IMG/VR virus record: IMGVR_UViG_2526164601_000037
DNA length: 37,714 nucleotides
Source of the DNA: a virus
Taxonomy: Duplodnaviria > Heunggongvirae > Uroviricota > Caudoviricetes
Strand: one strand, 5' to 3'
The notes beneath the pieces are model-generated. The model saw only the letters and a list, made by a program, of their open reading frames with translations, did no database searches and had not been told where the DNA came from. Every line of letters begins with the position of its first letter. Within the stretch, counting starts at the first letter, position 1. Shown one piece after another: positions 55 through 37,714 of this stretch. The translations under genes were made by a program, and so were the position numbers.

Positions 55-83
55 GTGAAAAGAAAAAAGGCCGCAGAGCGGCC
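55..83 (-). terminator. Putative intrinsic terminator for the minus-strand operon ending at 193
   Basis: Inverted repeat GGCCGC-AGA-GCGGCC (69..83) followed on the minus strand by a T-rich run (complement of the A-run at 55..68). Confidence 0.4.
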
Positions 84-5144: not shown

Positions 5145-5266
5145 GAAACCAGAACATGCACACACAAAAAAACCGCTTGCCATGCCGCAATCGGTCAGGT
5201 TACATTTCCGCTGCACCTCATAAAACGGGTGCCGGGATTCTCAACCCGATACAGAGCAAAGCGCAT

Positions 5267-5287
5267 AACCGCGCCAGCGGTTTTTTT
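5267..5287 (+). terminator. Weak candidate intrinsic terminator
   Basis: Short hairpin CCGC-GCCA-GCGG (5269..5280) followed by TTTTTTT (5281..5287). Confidence 0.35.
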
Positions 5288-5466
5288 GTGCGTACTGTAT
5301 TGCCACGTCTTTTTCGCGTCAGAATTATGGCGGGGCGTACGGGGCCGACTTCGGTCGGGCCGGATTCTTTGCTCTCCGGTGTTGAGAACCCTGTACGTCT
5401 CGCCACCCCGAGATTCTCAACTCTGGATGGTGAGCTATTTCTATCACCGAGCAAAGAGGCCACACC

Positions 5467-32050: not shown

Positions 32051-32207
32051 AGCTTCAGCCCCTTGTATCCGTTAAATGATTCGGCAACAATCATCACCCA
32101 CCACGCGCGTAATCTCACCCCTGCGCCGTTCTCCCGCCACGGCGACAACAAAAAGCAGTAACCCCCTCCGCACGCACATGCGACCATGCCGCACAGGGAG
32201 GGAACAG

Positions 32208-33308
32208 ATGACCGATACCACCATGCAATTGCTCAGTCAGGGCACAGACCCCGTGAAAATGCCGGATTTTGATATTCTCGCGGAGGGTAAAACGCTGTCA
32301 GGCGTGGCAGAGCGCCTGATGAGCCTGTCACTGACCGACAACCGGGGATTTGAGGCGGACCAGCTCACCATCACGCTGGATGATGCGGATGGTCAGTTGC
32401 AGCTACCGCCACGGGGCGCGCGCCTGACGGTTCTCATTGGCTGGAAAGGAGAACCGCTGACAGAAAAAGGCACTTACATTGTTGATGAAATCGCTCACGA
32501 AGGACCGCCGGACAGGCTGACTGTTTCAGCCAGAAGCGCAGATTTTCGGGATGAATTTAACGTTAAACGTGAGGTGTCCTGGCATGATGTGACCGTTGAG
32601 CGTGTGGTATCCGCCATCGCTCATCGATGGTCTGAAACCGCAAATCAGCGAAATGCTGATGGATATCGAAATCGACCACGCCGACCAGACCGAAGAAAGC
32701 GACATGTCCTTTCTTACGCGCATGGCGGAAATGCTGGGCGCAATCACCACCGTAAAAAGCGGCAATCTGTTATTCATCATGCCAGGTGGTGGCGTGAACG
32801 CACAGGGCCAGCCGTTGCCCTCGTTCGCCATTACACGCAGCAGCGGCGATCGCCATCAGTTCCGTATTGCTGACCGCGAGGCGTATACGGGGGTACGCGC
32901 TTACTGGCTTGATCTTAATTACGGGAAAAAGAAAAAGTCAGCGTGAAACGCCGCAAACCGCCAAAACCCAAAAAGGAGAAAAGCAGCAGCCGTGAAGGTG
33001 ATTATATGGAAGGCGCGGAAGGAAATGTGTTTGTGTTACGCAAGACTTATCAGAACGAGCAGGCAGCAAGACGCGCTGCGGCGGCAAAGTGGCAGCAGCT
33101 ACAACGCGGAGCCGCATCATTCTCCATCACGCTGGCGCGTGGACGTGCAGAACTCTACCCCGAAATGCATGGCACGGTAACAGGATTTAAAAGCGAGATT
33201 GATAATCAGGACTGGATTATTGCAAAAGCCGAGCACACCATTGATAACAGTGGCTTTACCACGCAGCTTGAGCTTGAGGCAAAAATCCCGGAATGGATAG
33301 CAGAATGA
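32208..33308 (+). pseudogene. D: Gene D (P2 gpD-like tail/late protein) interrupted by two frameshifts
   Basis: gpD similarity runs through three frames: 32208 to about 32625 (LSLTDNRGFEADQL, SARSADFR), about 32626..32946 (FLTRMAEMLG, ITRSSGDRHQF, AYTGV), and 32943..33308 (GDYMEGAEGNVF, NSGFTTQLELE). Second shift lies in the A-run gggaaaaagaaaaag (32923..32937). Confidence 0.55.
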
Positions 33309-33472: not shown

Positions 33473-34108
33473 TTAGCGAGCTAATATATTCAAAGAATTT
33501 AACAATTGAGTGTCGAGTGTTTCAGTTGCAGGAATCGGTAATCCATTCGCAATGCGGTAATTTTTCACAGACAGCCTTGTGGATGGCCCCATTATGCCGT
33601 CAATATTTCCGTTATAAAATCCCCTGTCCAGCAATGCGAACTGAACTCGCATAATCAATCGCTTACGTTTCTCTGCATCAGAAGCAAGCCCATTACTCGT
33701 ACGGTTAACCTCTGAAGTTCCAACAGAACTCGTGTTAGTGGTTCTATTATTATCGTTAGAACGAAGTGCACGCACCGAGGAAGAGGACGATGAGGAACTT
33801 GCACCTGAACTTGAAGAACCAGATGAACTTGGTGAGCTGTATGTTTTTGGATAATAGGGGGTACTTCCACCATAGTATCCACCACCTGATGAGGATCTAT
33901 GAGAGCTATGGCTCCTATGAGAGCTATGGCTTCGATGCCCTGCGATATAAAATGGGACTTCCGTGTTAAGTGGAGCTATCACTAAATCATGCTCATTAAG
34001 AGTCATACCAGGTAAATCACTCGCTCCTGTAGATGAATCGCTTGCCCATACAGAATTGTTGAGAGCCAAAAATCCCGGAAGTAGAGCAGCAAAATTAAAC
34101 TTTTTCAT
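33473..34108 (-). CDS. hxsA: His-Xaa-Ser repeat protein (HxsA-like precursor) with signal peptide, Ser-rich tract and C-terminal peptidoglycan-binding-like domain
   Basis: Start at the ATG at 34108 (MKKFNFAALLPGFLALNNSVWA); repeats HRSHSSHRSHSSHRSSS; poly-Ser tract; C-terminal LDRGFYNGNIDGIMGPSTRLSVKNYRIANGLP. ORF-track frame extends upstream to 34186. Confidence 0.7.
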   Translation of the reverse strand: MKKFNFAALLPGFLALNNSVWASDSSTGASDLPGMTLNEHDLVIAPLNTEVPFYIAGHRSHSSHRSHSSHRSSSGGGYYGGSTPYYPKTYSSPSSSGSSSSGASSSSSSSSVRALRSNDNNRTTNTSSVGTSEVNRTSNGLASDAEKRKRLIMRVQFALLDRGFYNGNIDGIMGPSTRLSVKNYRIANGLPIPATETLDTQLLNSLNILAR

Positions 34109-35217
34109 AAAATTGGTCTCGGTGATTGATGAAAACGGCCTTTTGAGGAACTGAAATAGCCAGCACAGGAAGGCTTCTGAGTACATTCATCACATTCTTT
34201 TGGATAGTAATTTTTCCAATCAGAGATCGACTGAACAGCAAGCTCCCTAGCCCTTTCAGGAAGATAACACAAAGGATAATTAAAAATTGTCAGAGGTATG
34301 CCTGACCTGTATGCAGCGTCTATGGCAGAGATTATTTTCTCACTATAACTACTGTGATCAATGAAGATGGTGGACCAGTTTTTTCGTGCCCAACCGATAG
34401 GCTCCAACCCCATAAGGGAAATCTGATTGATGTTGGAGAACACACGGCCAGCGAATTCTACAATATCATCCAATTCGGTATAGTTAGCCAGTGTAGGAAT
34501 AACTCTAAGTTCGATATTAATCCCCAAGTTTCCTGCATTGATTAACCCTTTAACCGTTTCATTAAATGCGCCATCACTCCCTACCAGATGATCATGCACA
34601 AGTGGTCTTGATGAGTAGAGCGGGATACCAAAGGTGATTTTGATCTTTTTGCTTCGCTTTGCCATTTCCTGTGTAAAGTTGATATCAGCAAATTTGCGTC
34701 CGTTTGTTAAAACATGTAAAGCAGTATCTGGTGAATTCTCGATGATAAAGTCAATGAAGTGAAGGAAGTCATCCCCATATAGCAAAGGTTCACCACCGCT
34801 GACCCCAACAACTCCGTTCAAGCCAAATGAAGCTATAGCAAGAGCTGATTGGGTAAGTAGCCAGTCATCATTTATTTTCTTTGGTGGCTGCGAACAAAAC
34901 AGACACAAGTTATTGCAGCGTTCCGTAACTAAGACAGTATTATGATTGGCTTTGCGTGACAGAATAACGCGTATCATATTGCCATTGTTGATTATCCCAA
35001 TATCTCCATCTTCAATTGACTCAAATAATTCAGTGCTAATAACAGAGAAATCAAAGCATGGTGGAATGGCATCATTATTGCCTTCAGCAACTACTAGCAA
35101 ATTGGGCAAAAAGAATAAAGGGTTCACTGGTTTTTGTTTGCATAACCGATAGAACCCCGTGGGCACGTTCTCTGTAGAAGCAAAATGAAAGATATCGTTC
35201 CTGATAACCTCAGACAT
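34105..35217 (-). CDS. hxsC: Radical SAM maturase of the His-Xaa-Ser system (HxsC-like; B/C assignment tentative)
   Basis: CNNLCLFC (CX3CX2C) cluster motif, GGEPLL SAM-binding motif, C-terminal Cys cluster CDECTQKPSC; overlaps neighbours by a few nt. Confidence 0.8.
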   Translation of the reverse strand: MSEVIRNDIFHFASTENVPTGFYRLCKQKPVNPLFFLPNLLVVAEGNNDAIPPCFDFSVISTELFESIEDGDIGIINNGNMIRVILSRKANHNTVLVTERCNNLCLFCSQPPKKINDDWLLTQSALAIASFGLNGVVGVSGGEPLLYGDDFLHFIDFIIENSPDTALHVLTNGRKFADINFTQEMAKRSKKIKITFGIPLYSSRPLVHDHLVGSDGAFNETVKGLINAGNLGINIELRVIPTLANYTELDDIVEFAGRVFSNINQISLMGLEPIGWARKNWSTIFIDHSSYSEKIISAIDAAYRSGIPLTIFNYPLCYLPERARELAVQSISDWKNYYPKECDECTQKPSCAGYFSSSKGRFHQSPRPIL

Positions 35218-36598
35218 ATGCCCATCCTTTTAGCATCTCAGCCTTCGAACCACCCTCTGAGATGCAGTTCATCAGATACCTGAACATCCCCTTGTGGTAT
35301 TGACAAAACGTTGAACGACTCCTATCACCGACAGGCTCACCCTGTACACTTATGTTCTGGCATGGATCTGAACCACAAAATGGTTGATATGCACATGTAT
35401 CACAACCTGGCAGAGCAAAATTGAACGATGAACTCAATACTGCGTTATAGTAAGGACTATCAGAAAATGATAGCGTCTTAACTTCACCCGCACTGAACTC
35501 CATTTCAGGATTCACCTTCTGCAACATACGGCTCTCATCGCTACCATATACTCGACCGTCATAATTGAAAAGAATACTGTTAAGCACGACTCCACTTGGA
35601 GACTTTAAATCCGCATAACCACTAAAACCGGGATTGAAGATCCTTTTCAGATGAATGGAGGCCGAATGTTCCACAACCCTTATCCCTTCATTATTAATCT
35701 TAAGGATTTCATCTATCAACGAGGCATAGAAGCTGAAGTATTCGTCCATAGAAAAGGTGAAAGAAGCTTTTTGTGCAAACCCATAGGGACTAACAGGTCG
35801 GATAAACATGTCCTTGAGACCAAGAGACAAGTGAGCCTGAACAATCGATTCAGGACGTCTGATAAGCTCTTTAGTAACTGTAGTAACCGTTGCAACGCGG
35901 CCAGCACCTAAAGAGTGTTTGATAGCCTCCACCCCTGACACTGTTCTACTGTACGCAAGCCCACGACCAAGAATTCGATTACTGTTGTGAACAACTTCCT
36001 CACCATCAAGCGACACAGAGAACGTTATGTTCCGGTCTCTCGACCATTCAATCATATCCTCATTCAAGACAGACAGACTTGATGCCACCACCATCTCAAA
36101 ATTGGTTCTTCCCAGCGTTTCAGCACATTGATCATAGATGCTCTGAATTAAATCAAACCGCAAGAGAGGCTCCCCACCCTGTATCTCTATTTTGTAAGGT
36201 GGCGTTGATAGTTTTTTAATAGCCGAAATAATATCGGGGATGAGCTCAGGATTTAGGTCGTAACCTAAGGCATTAACAGAAGCTCTACTAACCTGGCAAT
36301 ACTTGCATGTATGGTCACAACGTAATGTGGGTACAATCATGAAAATTGGCCTGACAGCCAGTTCATTCATCAATCGTTTTGCAAAAGCAGAACTTAAAGC
36401 ATAGGGAGTTATAGCAGATGAGCTTTCACTGGTTATGAAAAGCTTACTTTCTAGCACGTTTGATTGCTCCGAACTAATTCGCTCATCAGAAAGATCAATA
36501 AGGTCTTGCTCACCAATGAAATGATGAAAACCTGCAAGGTTGCTTATAAACACCTGTCCATTAGGCAATCTGTCAAAATTAAATGGCATCAATTCCAT
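35210..36598 (-). CDS. hxsB: Radical SAM maturase of the His-Xaa-Ser system with SPASM-like C-terminal Cys cluster (HxsB-like; B/C assignment tentative)
   Basis: CDHTCKYC (CX3CX2C), GGEPLL, C-terminal CDTCAYQPFCGSDPC; start overlaps the hxsD stop. Confidence 0.8.
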   Translation of the reverse strand: MELMPFNFDRLPNGQVFISNLAGFHHFIGEQDLIDLSDERISSEQSNVLESKLFITSESSSAITPYALSSAFAKRLMNELAVRPIFMIVPTLRCDHTCKYCQVSRASVNALGYDLNPELIPDIISAIKKLSTPPYKIEIQGGEPLLRFDLIQSIYDQCAETLGRTNFEMVVASSLSVLNEDMIEWSRDRNITFSVSLDGEEVVHNSNRILGRGLAYSRTVSGVEAIKHSLGAGRVATVTTVTKELIRRPESIVQAHLSLGLKDMFIRPVSPYGFAQKASFTFSMDEYFSFYASLIDEILKINNEGIRVVEHSASIHLKRIFNPGFSGYADLKSPSGVVLNSILFNYDGRVYGSDESRMLQKVNPEMEFSAGEVKTLSFSDSPYYNAVLSSSFNFALPGCDTCAYQPFCGSDPCQNISVQGEPVGDRSRSTFCQYHKGMFRYLMNCISEGGSKAEMLKGWAYV

Positions 36599-36912
36599 TA
36601 TGAAAGTCTCTCATCAACACTGCGAAGCACTTTATGGACAATAGAGTCTCTCAACGCCCCTGTTTTATGCTGTAGCTTTTCTCGCAAAGAGTAATCATTA
36701 AGCAGCCTATCGAATTCATAAAGGAATTTGGGATTATCGTTTTCAAAAGAGATTATCCAGTGGGAAACGTCTTCATGGAGTTTCCATCGAGTAAGCGGAG
36801 TCATCCAATATAGACTATTGCGTATAACCCATTCAGAATATAGTTCTTTCTCAAACACTCTTTCGCTCATTGCAATTATCTTCCAATACAAATATTCATG
36901 ATCAGCAACCAC
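36598..36912 (-). CDS. hxsD: His-Xaa-Ser system protein HxsD-like
   Basis: Contains LLNDYSLRE, matching the LLNDYxLRE signature recalled for the HxsD family; first gene of the minus-strand cassette. Confidence 0.8.
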   Translation of the reverse strand: MVADHEYLYWKIIAMSERVFEKELYSEWVIRNSLYWMTPLTRWKLHEDVSHWIISFENDNPKFLYEFDRLLNDYSLREKLQHKTGALRDSIVHKVLRSVDERLS

Positions 36913-37122
36913 TTTAAAGCGGATTTTTCCTATGGCAACAATAATATAACATATCCATAGATATGTTACAGATGCCTTGTTTCCCGTTGACTAATACATC
37001 ACAACGTTAGTAATGGCTATCACAATTGTGAACTTCCACTTTTCACACAAGACAAGCTGTTAATTGGAATCTGTATCAGTACAACTTAGAATAGCGGAAG
37101 CACCACAGTAAGGGAGGTCGCT

Positions 37123-37383
37123 ATGTTCCGTTGTCCACTTTGTGGCGCATCTGCCCGTATCCGCACTAGTCGTCCGGAAAATGATTCAAACACTGTGCGG
37201 CAAAAGTATTACCAATGTAACAACCTAGAATGCGGCGTATGCTTCTCAACACTGGAAGCTTTCCATAAATTCACATCGAAACACGCCTCCGGCGCTCACT
37301 CTTCAGAAGGTATCCCGTGGCATGAACTGCCAGCTTCACACAAAGGAAACAATCAGATGAGTTTGCCCTTACCTCAAAATTAA
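37123..37383 (+). CDS. ogr: Late-gene transcription activator, Ogr/Delta zinc-finger family
   Basis: MFRCPLCGASARIRTSRPE...YYQCNNLECG matches the P2 Ogr pattern (MFHCPLC...ARTSR...QC.N..C) as recalled; RBS AGGGAGG. Confidence 0.85.
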   Translation: MFRCPLCGASARIRTSRPENDSNTVRQKYYQCNNLECGVCFSTLEAFHKFTSKHASGAHSSEGIPWHELPASHKGNNQMSLPLPQN

Positions 37384-37473
37384 CAGGCAGAATTGCCGGA
37401 GTAACAAAAAAGAGATAGATTACGCGCGGGTGCCTTTCGGCTGATGGTCGGAGGGAATACCTGAAGGCCAGAT

Positions 37474-37707
37474 GTGGAAAGGCCCCGGAAAACATTTCTG
37501 TTTAACCGAGGCCCTAACCGCATTACCTTGACAAGTGAAAGGTTAGCGCCTCTCCGGAAAAGGAGCAAGTGCTATGTCGCAAAAATCGCTTACGGCCATC
37601 ACGTTCTGCGTGACGGCAATCCTCATCATCTGGATGTTGCACGGTTCGCTGTGCGAAATACGGATGAGCTTCTGGGGAGCGGAGTTTGCGGCGTTCTTAC
37701 AGTGTAA
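37474..37707 (+). CDS. Possible mok-like overlapping reading frame of the hok locus
   Basis: ORF track; overlaps nearly all of the hok-like gene in another frame, as mok does in hok/sok loci. Confidence 0.35.
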   Translation: MERPRKTFLFNRGPNRITLTSERLAPLRKRSKCYVAKIAYGHHVLRDGNPHHLDVARFAVRNTDELLGSGVCGVLTV

Positions 37708-37714
37708 GCAGTAA
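37574..37714 (+). CDS. hok: Hok/Gef-family membrane toxin (type I toxin-antitoxin)
   Basis: 46-aa product MSQKSLTAITFCVTAILIIWMLHGSLCEIRMSFWGAEFAAFLQCKQ with the SLCEIR motif and single TM helix; RBS AGGAG; stop codon is the last three bases of the window. Confidence 0.8.
   Translation: MSQKSLTAITFCVTAILIIWMLHGSLCEIRMSFWGAEFAAFLQCKQ

Follow-up and report, generated by a model that had tools for sequence, protein, structure and literature searches.

The hok/sok locus is a textbook system, and hok genes have been reported to be enriched in prophages. In the toxin-antitoxin (TA) system of plasmid R1, Hok synthesis requires that mok be translated up to the Shine-Dalgarno (SD) sequence of hok, but this translation need not continue past the hok start (Le Rhun et al. 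2022, PMC9841398). The hokW-sokW locus of the prophage Sp5 is a type I TA system that depends partly on RNase III and Hfq, and the antitoxin activity of sokW needs the sokW promoter (Takada et al. 2021, PMC8621323). RecA-dependent induction brings a loss of SokW together with production of HokW, and phage release falls by half when the locus is missing (PMC8621323). R1 hok/sok also lowers the plating of T4 (cited in PMC8621323). At the level of the toxin, 42 of 45 tested Hok homologs were toxic and the three non-toxic ones were named; the study was deliberately limited to Hok coding sequences, and Mok, Sok and mRNA structure were left undefined (Escalera-Maurer et al., bioRxiv 10.1101/2025.08.07.668861). 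One homolog of that collection, 72_1621, stands for a high-abundance cluster and was cloned as plasmid LRP137 for arabinose-induced toxicity assays (bioRxiv 10.1101/2025.08.07.668861). Its coding sequence is identical, in nucleotides and in peptide, to an open reading frame of the DNA described here (Table S2 of the same study). Since the result is read by exclusion and not from a figure, it can be said of 72_1621 that it is absent from the three homologs named as non-toxic. Another member of cluster 72 (60% identity), 72_1589, encodes the identical peptide and has a few synonymous differences from the lom-adjacent copy of an Stx phage (L007) (bioRxiv 10.1101/2025.08.07.668861).

The DNA analysed here, called the window, comprises 37,714 nucleotides and represents a P2-like E. 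coli prophage of the P88/Xuanwuvirus type (Peduoviridae). Very probably it carries a complete hok/sok-family type I TA module, to judge from sequence homology and predicted folds, as cargo between ogr and attR of this prophage at the ihfA terminator. Over the right end of the window (36600-37714), identity is 100% with the chromosome of strain 96_1414B and 99.8% with that of O26:H11 11368. The ogr gene occupies 37123-37383 on the plus strand and matches Pfam Ogr_Delta with 52 bits, which backs the claim of an earlier note on this DNA that hok comes directly after ogr. The order ogr-hok is common to the phages P88, PhiR44_2, 500465-2 and Chuche, and the stretch is 94-97% identical to these phages and to Xuanwuvirus P884B11. 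In those phage records the hok gene is labelled either 'MokW-like host killing' or 'hok/gef family protein'. The locus is real and already known, being annotated in RefSeq and in phage P88.

The toxin gene lies at 37574-37714 on the plus strand and is supported by Pfam, PHROG and the RefSeq annotation WP_000078916.1, which PGAP/RefSeq names 'Hok/Gef family protein' in the identical chromosome. Its translation is MSQKSLTAITFCVTAILIIWMLHGSLCEIRMSFWGAEFAAFLQCKQ, a peptide of 46 aa in which SLCEIR forms residues 25-30, downstream of a hydrophobic N-terminal half. The Pfam family PF01848 (HOK_GEF) matches the peptide with 29.9 bits against a cut-off of 22 (E 4e-7), and PHROG 251, 'MokW-like host killing', matches it over the full length with E 1.3e-22. 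The earlier note had recognized a 46-aa Hok-family toxin with the SLCEIR motif, and these two matches bear it out. The lack of toxicity that would have counted against that note is addressed indirectly by the absence of 72_1621, the same peptide, from the homologs named as non-toxic. The more narrowly defined NCBIfam models score under their curated cut-offs on this peptide, with 34 bits against 89 for NF007290 (HokA equivalog) and 21.6 bits against 73 for NF007279 (Hok subfamily). Identical residues shared with Hok-R1, HokW, HokB and HokC number about 10-12 each; for instance, 12 identities were counted over 31 aligned residues with the 52-aa Hok of R1, and 11 over 37 with the 51-aa HokW, which belongs to another cluster. 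The scores under cut-off together with so few identities place the peptide in a separate Hok cluster. The dN/dS of the frame ranges from 0.08 to 0.6 against relatives; the frame is more than a chance ORF and is under purifying selection.

The hok TAA provides the final three bases of the window, as the earlier note had stated. Among the IMG/VR contigs fetched that carry this hok, 47 of 80 end exactly at its stop codon, so that the boundary is an artefact of trimming to gene calls and has no biological meaning. Such trimming at the last called gene systematically removes the 3′ UTR of hok, including the fbi element and the terminator, as well as attR. The extension downstream that the earlier note had proposed was made by taking the sequence 3′ of the window from the 100%-identical chromosome L004, and fbi, the terminator and attR were all located outside the window. 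The longest exact repeat between the start of the window and the sequence past hok is a 25-bp att core, AAAGAAAAAAGGCCGCAGAGCGGCC, found at window positions 59-83 (attL) and at L004 7379-7403 (attR). The chromosomal order 3′ of hok is ihfA-pheT-pheS, and the attR copy lies in the ihfA terminator, 264 bp past the hok stop. Accordingly, hok is cargo between ogr and attR. The earlier note had expected attR or attP at the position of hok itself; this did not hold, and an attR overlapping hok is ruled out by the distance of the core. The true right end of the prophage is not at the hok stop, and about 290 bp are absent from the window.

Other cargo was seen at this end in related P2-like prophages, where a zinc-ribbon protein with a TagO-like protein, or Com with a DNA methyltransferase, lies between hok and attR (L002 3616-5108, L003 3615-5106, L015 977-1248). 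The homology of these loci to the window stops right past the fbi element (...GGCACCCTATCTCACAG), which indicates that the hok module borders a hotspot of variable cargo. Within the window, a four-gene His-Xaa-Ser cluster occupies 33473-36912 on the minus strand between tail gene D and ogr; PGAP annotates in the identical chromosome hxsA (repeat protein), hxsC and hxsB (radical SAM maturases), and hxsD. Since gene D is followed directly by ogr in P88 and PhiR44_2, the cluster is a second cargo module at the same prophage end. Gene D itself (about 32076-33308, plus strand) seems split over three frames when set against gpD of PhiR44_2, which is intact with 370 aa. The tblastn matches correspond to aa 1-141, 142-262 and 242-367 of that protein, in frames that alternate, and one of the breaks falls at an A-rich run near 32940. 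The cause is either a defect of the prophage or homopolymer errors in the assembly; a partial gene is also called by PGAP at gene D in 96_1414B. At the other end, two minus-strand ORFs at 193-735 and 736-1149 lie between attL and the integrase (1121-2263). They encode a coiled-coil protein of 180 aa, hydrophobic in its C-terminal tail, which has only sub-threshold Pfam matches, and a 137-aa Cys-rich protein that gave no Pfam match, and may be further cargo. An isrK match (5213-5287, plus strand, 62.8 bits) sits beside one to the C4 antisense RNA (5323-5410, plus strand, 78.5 bits), both above the Rfam gathering threshold, and the pair suggests an antisense immunity element of the P1/P7 type in a P2-like prophage.

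The leader of hok was examined with covariance models. At the gathering threshold Rfam gave no hok/sok match in the window. At an E-value threshold, RF01794 matched 37428-37587 on the plus strand over model positions 1-157, with 48.3 bits against a gathering score of 59 and an E-value of 6e-10. The covariance search suggested in the earlier note thus did recover a hok leader, although with a score below gathering. Relatives of the subfamily score 33-46 bits and classical loci 89-118 bits, with 89 for the R1 type; by comparison of these sequences, the low score is one of a divergent leader, not of an absence of homology. RF01794 bears the name 'sok antitoxin', yet it matches the hok-sense strand, from the mRNA 5′ end to the hok start codon. 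Its orientation was tested on loci L021, L022, L023 and L006, which represent hokB/sokB and hokC/sokC of K-12, hokW/sokW of 933W and the R1 type. The model was sense to hok in all annotated loci, so that the strand of a match gives the orientation of hok and not that of Sok, and a supposed strand problem with the plus-strand match was dropped. The start of the model coincides with the mRNA 5′ end in R1, hokB, hokC and hokW. As a model of the hok leader, RF01794 predicts through its position 1 that the transcript here starts at G 37428, with the 5′ end and tac element GGGUGCCUUU at 37428-37437.

A scan of 37300-37714 for consensus promoters and terminators found nothing on either strand, and both the hok and the Sok promoter were therefore assigned by homology and not by consensus. 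The putative hok promoter, as read from the sequence, spans 37393-37421 (plus strand) and consists of a -35 TTGCCG (37393-37398), a 17-nt spacer and a -10 TAGATT (37416-37421). It agrees with the consensus at 8 of 12 positions, just below the scan threshold, and its -10 lies 6 nt from 37428. In relatives from different genomic contexts, ATTGCC and TA-rich hexamers keep a constant distance from the conserved GGGTGCC. The transcript is predicted to run from 37428 to beyond the window end, about 410 nt in all. A terminator, CCCGCAGCGUAAAAACUGCGGG followed by a U run, is present about 90-125 nt past the window end.

The mRNA 5′ end GGGUGCCUU is exactly complementary to the fbi sequence AAGGCACCC at L004 7172-7180, which is 58-66 nt past the window end. 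Minimum free energy (MFE) folds of the 350-nt and 412-nt transcripts close the 5′ end onto fbi with z-scores of -6.9 and -7.1. In a consensus fold of 13 loci with 74-100% identity there are 100 pairs, 16 of them with compensatory changes, and the fbi-tac closure, the leader hairpin and a hairpin just past the stop codon are all retained. The hok SD, AAGGAG (37560-37565), is covered by a CUCC/GGAG hairpin (37552-37565, plus strand, read from the sequence) whose pairs (columns 130-133 with 140-143) persist in the consensus, where the hok AUG is paired with codons 36-38. The tac/fbi sequences are GGGUGCC/GGCACCC in this subfamily and in K-12 hokB, versus GGCGCUU/AAGCGCC in R1, a coordinate difference. 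An alternative conformer like that of R1 is possible, in which the mRNA 5′ end pairs with AAAGGCCCC (37478-37486) and a sokT-like target hairpin forms; 93% of the alignment cells are paired in it. The target hairpin, GAGGC-C-CUAACC / loop / GGUUAG-C-GCCUC, corresponds to the third helix of RF01794 and lies at 37508-37552 (plus strand). Among the 13 loci 95% of its cells are paired, and all changes (A-U to G-U, C-G to U-G) are wobble-compatible on the plus strand. The helices of the refolded conformer are nearly invariant within the subfamily, and consequently covariation lends them little support beyond these wobble-compatible changes. A YUNR U-turn (CUUG) noticed by eye in the target loop was set aside, since the motif is too short to mean anything.

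The earlier note expected a Sok-type antisense RNA on the minus strand of the leader, where it could not be located with confidence by eye. Such a gene can now be placed at 37532 to about 37470 (minus strand) by homology to sokW, sokB and sokC together with an asymmetric hairpin. The predicted RNA, GUCAAGGUAAUGCGGUUAGGGCCUCGGUUAAACAGAAAUGUUUUCCGGGGCCUUUCCACAUC, of about 57-63 nt, would comprise a 5′ single-stranded tail of about 18 nt (37532-37515), a stem-loop (37514-37479) and a short U-containing tail. As the U tract after the stem is short, the 3′ end is only approximate (about 37470-37476). The hairpin sequence GGCCUCGG...CCGGGGCC and its layout are as in the annotated sokB, sokC and sokW, and the hairpin is nearly identical to those of SokB and SokC. 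The closest Sok architecture is that of K-12 hokB/sokB (compare GGCCUCGGUUGAUAGAAAUAUCGGUCGGGGCC with GGGCCUCGGUUAAACAGAAAUGUUUUCCGGGGCC), which differs in belonging to another peptide cluster and in being chromosomal rather than carried on a prophage.

A promoter for this RNA can be assigned by the same homology. In sokW, sokB and sokC the -35 coincides in part with the region immediately 5′ of the hok SD, the spacer is 17 nt, and the -10 lies 6-7 nt before the RNA. The putative promoter here (37540-37568, minus strand) follows this layout with a -35 TTGCTC (37568-37563), a 17-nt spacer, a -10 TAACCT (37545-37540) and 7 nt between the -10 and the start G 37532. The annotated counterparts are TTGCCT-17-TAACCT in sokW and TTGCCG-17-TAAGAT in sokB, so that the -10 and its spacing are those of sokW in 933W. 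The putative promoter agrees with the consensus at 6 of 12 positions and was missed by the promoter scan, while its region is among the most conserved non-coding stretches (0.98 identity). What was found inside the hok leader is hence a predicted antisense gene with a putative promoter of its own.

The hairpin gives further indications of strand. The predicted Sok RNA has an MFE of -26.4 kcal/mol (z -4.4), and the consensus hairpin of 10 relatives reaches -19.1 kcal/mol on the minus strand versus -7.8 on the plus strand. Three G-U pairs of the minus-strand hairpin become C.A mismatches on the plus strand. This asymmetry in energy and in G-U pairs argues for selection acting on the minus-strand structure. 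Variation was surveyed in 81 loci that encode the identical Hok peptide and comprise 44 distinct sequences. Variable columns make up 63% of the Sok 5′-tail target and 56% of the hairpin loop and inner stem, compared with 17% of the Sok promoter, 10-15% of the stem arms and 11% of the coding sequence. A peak of variation in the tail target and loop is what the recognition determinants of an antisense pair would be expected to show.

The locus follows R1 hok/sok (parB) in its order of genes and in its logic, and shares with it the LCEIR core, an antisense gene predicted within the leader, a putative Sok promoter overlapping the region just upstream of the hok SD, the fbi-tac closure, the hairpin right past the stop codon, and an overlapping frame whose stop precedes that of hok by a few nucleotides. 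It differs in being prophage-borne and not plasmid-borne. With hokW-sokW of the Stx2 phages 933W and Sp5 it shares the prophage location; that locus, however, has a classical leader (113.5 bits) and resides in a lambdoid phage, whereas the present one is next to attR of a P2-like phage. The departure that concerns regulation is the mok start. An annotated mokW starts opposite the SokW 5′ end, and mokB starts likewise opposite the 5′ end of SokB. No start codon lies here opposite the Sok 5′ tail, the site of the mok start in R1, hokB, hokC and hokW, and the candidate start is displaced upstream by about 45 nt, to a site facing the Sok 3′ end. TTG 37528, at the position equivalent to R1, was ruled out as a mok start, since it lacks both conservation and an SD.

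An overlapping mok-like frame, which the earlier note had reported, does exist. It begins at GTG 37474 and extends through 77 codons to a TAA at 37707 (37474-37707, plus strand), 7 nt before the hok stop; in the window no stop interrupts it across the hok SD and ATG, and its phase relative to hok matches that of R1 mok. The frame is not uniformly conserved, being closed in some close relatives, among them P88 with 94.5% DNA identity. Its candidate start region (37463-37476, plus strand) contains an SD-like GAAGG (37463-37467) and the overlapping codons ATG 37472 and GTG 37474. The resulting GAUGUG motif, which faces the Sok 3′ tail, contains an AUG and a GUG in different frames and is kept in 34 of the 35 distinct leaders derived from 93 loci; the S. 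diarizonae locus is the one without it. In 29 of the 35 leaders, an ORF from the GAUGUG starts extends at least to position -31, counted from the hok ATG. Of these, 19 have an ORF that runs through the hok AUG and 10 have one that stops 5-17 nt short of the hok SD; in 5 other leaders, including P88, it ends earlier. The 19-codon ORF from ATG 37472 was ruled out as a conserved leader peptide, as its length varies from 1 to about 79 codons in relatives. By our own estimate, made on related sequences, the chance of such a long leader ORF is roughly 0.5, compared with the 29 of 35 seen; from these leaders, retention of a long ORF is suggestive but not conclusive.

Coupling of hok translation to a leader ORF is the most likely mode of control here, and it is also the least certain step of the explanation. 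The main rival holds that the same family of toxin and antisense RNA is controlled without mok, the overlapping frame being fortuitous and Sok repressing hok by no other means than RNase III cleavage or the release of the CCUCUCC anti-SD, which would then sequester the hok SD. It is consistent with the 5 leaders, P88 among them, whose GAUGUG ORF stops at least 20 nt before the hok SD, with the loss of the motif in the S. diarizonae locus, and with a synonymous TGC-to-TGT change in hok that shuts the frame in many relatives. The long ORFs, moreover, are not far above the rough chance expectation, and the ATG opposite the Sok 5′ tail of R1, hokB, hokC and hokW has no counterpart. Nevertheless, we consider control without mok rather improbable, for R1 needs mok translation up to the hok SD (PMC9841398) and the AUGUG provides two frames, so that after 1-nt indels the other start restores the long ORF (L012, L015, L027 and L037 compared with L004). 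Conservation is also high around the motif and the GAAGG, in a stretch to which the Sok 3′ tail would pair. For the cluster of the 46-aa Hok peptides as a whole, borne by P2-like and lambdoid prophages, we tentatively propose, with little confidence, that the classical mok start was lost and that its role may have passed to a relocated leader ORF at the dual-frame AUGUG or, in variants devoid of the ORF such as P88, to a mok-independent refolding or RNase III cleavage induced by Sok.

Insertion of IS186 inactivates hokC of K-12. That the present locus is likewise a silent relic, with an intact toxin ORF that is never expressed, as in several chromosomal hok loci of K-12, no functional antitoxin RNA, and a minus-strand hairpin that only mirrors an mRNA structure, is very unlikely, because against the RF01794 score below gathering, two promoters weak by consensus and the IS186 immediately adjoining K-12 hokC stand an ORF under purifying selection, putative promoters, fold and terminator that are intact and conserved across P2-like, lambdoid and chromosomal contexts, G-U pairs that speak for the minus strand in the case of the Sok hairpin and for the plus strand in that of the sokT hairpin, variation focused on the recognition tail and loop as an active antisense pair predicts, and a peptide that belongs to the tested set and is not listed as non-toxic.

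With coupling through a leader ORF, the module would be expected to work by analogy with R1 and hokW-sokW. The full-length hok mRNA would be stable yet translationally inert, owing to the 5′-3′ closure and the sequestered SD and AUG. Slow trimming from the 3′ end would then allow the mRNA 5′ end to refold onto the complementary leader segment at 37478-37486. As long as it is made, the short-lived Sok-type RNA may pair with the leader, its variable 5′ tail probably making the first contact. This pairing would cover the GUG and AUG of the mok-like ORF and so prevent the leader translation that opens the hok SD, and the duplex of Sok and leader would be marked for RNase III. Once Sok transcription stops, possibly through loss of the prophage, shut-off of the host by another phage or induction of the prophage, the stable mRNA would be translated and Hok would depolarise the inner membrane.

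The full locus was found in 1757 of 5426 complete E. coli genomes (about 32%); a scan of genome contigs gave 6 loci only. In P2-like prophages the locus follows ogr, in lambdoid and Stx phages it adjoins lom or separates J from the tail-fibre genes, and in O157-type chromosomes it lies beside the type B L31 gene. The locus is only mildly unusual, in its missing classical mok start and its variable leader ORF, and the anatomy of Mok, Sok and mRNA given here for cluster 72 is a prediction of this analysis, made from sequence and folding comparisons. Beyond correct annotation the finding matters little. The antitoxin RNA of this Hok cluster, which had no annotation, gains predicted coordinates, and the cluster occurs in roughly one third of complete E. 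coli genomes. If true, either route of control, by a relocated leader ORF or without mok, would constitute a regulatory variant of the textbook hok/mok/sok circuit. Should the module behave like hokW-sokW or R1 hok/sok, it could affect retention of the prophage, the timing of lysis on induction, or the exclusion of other phages.
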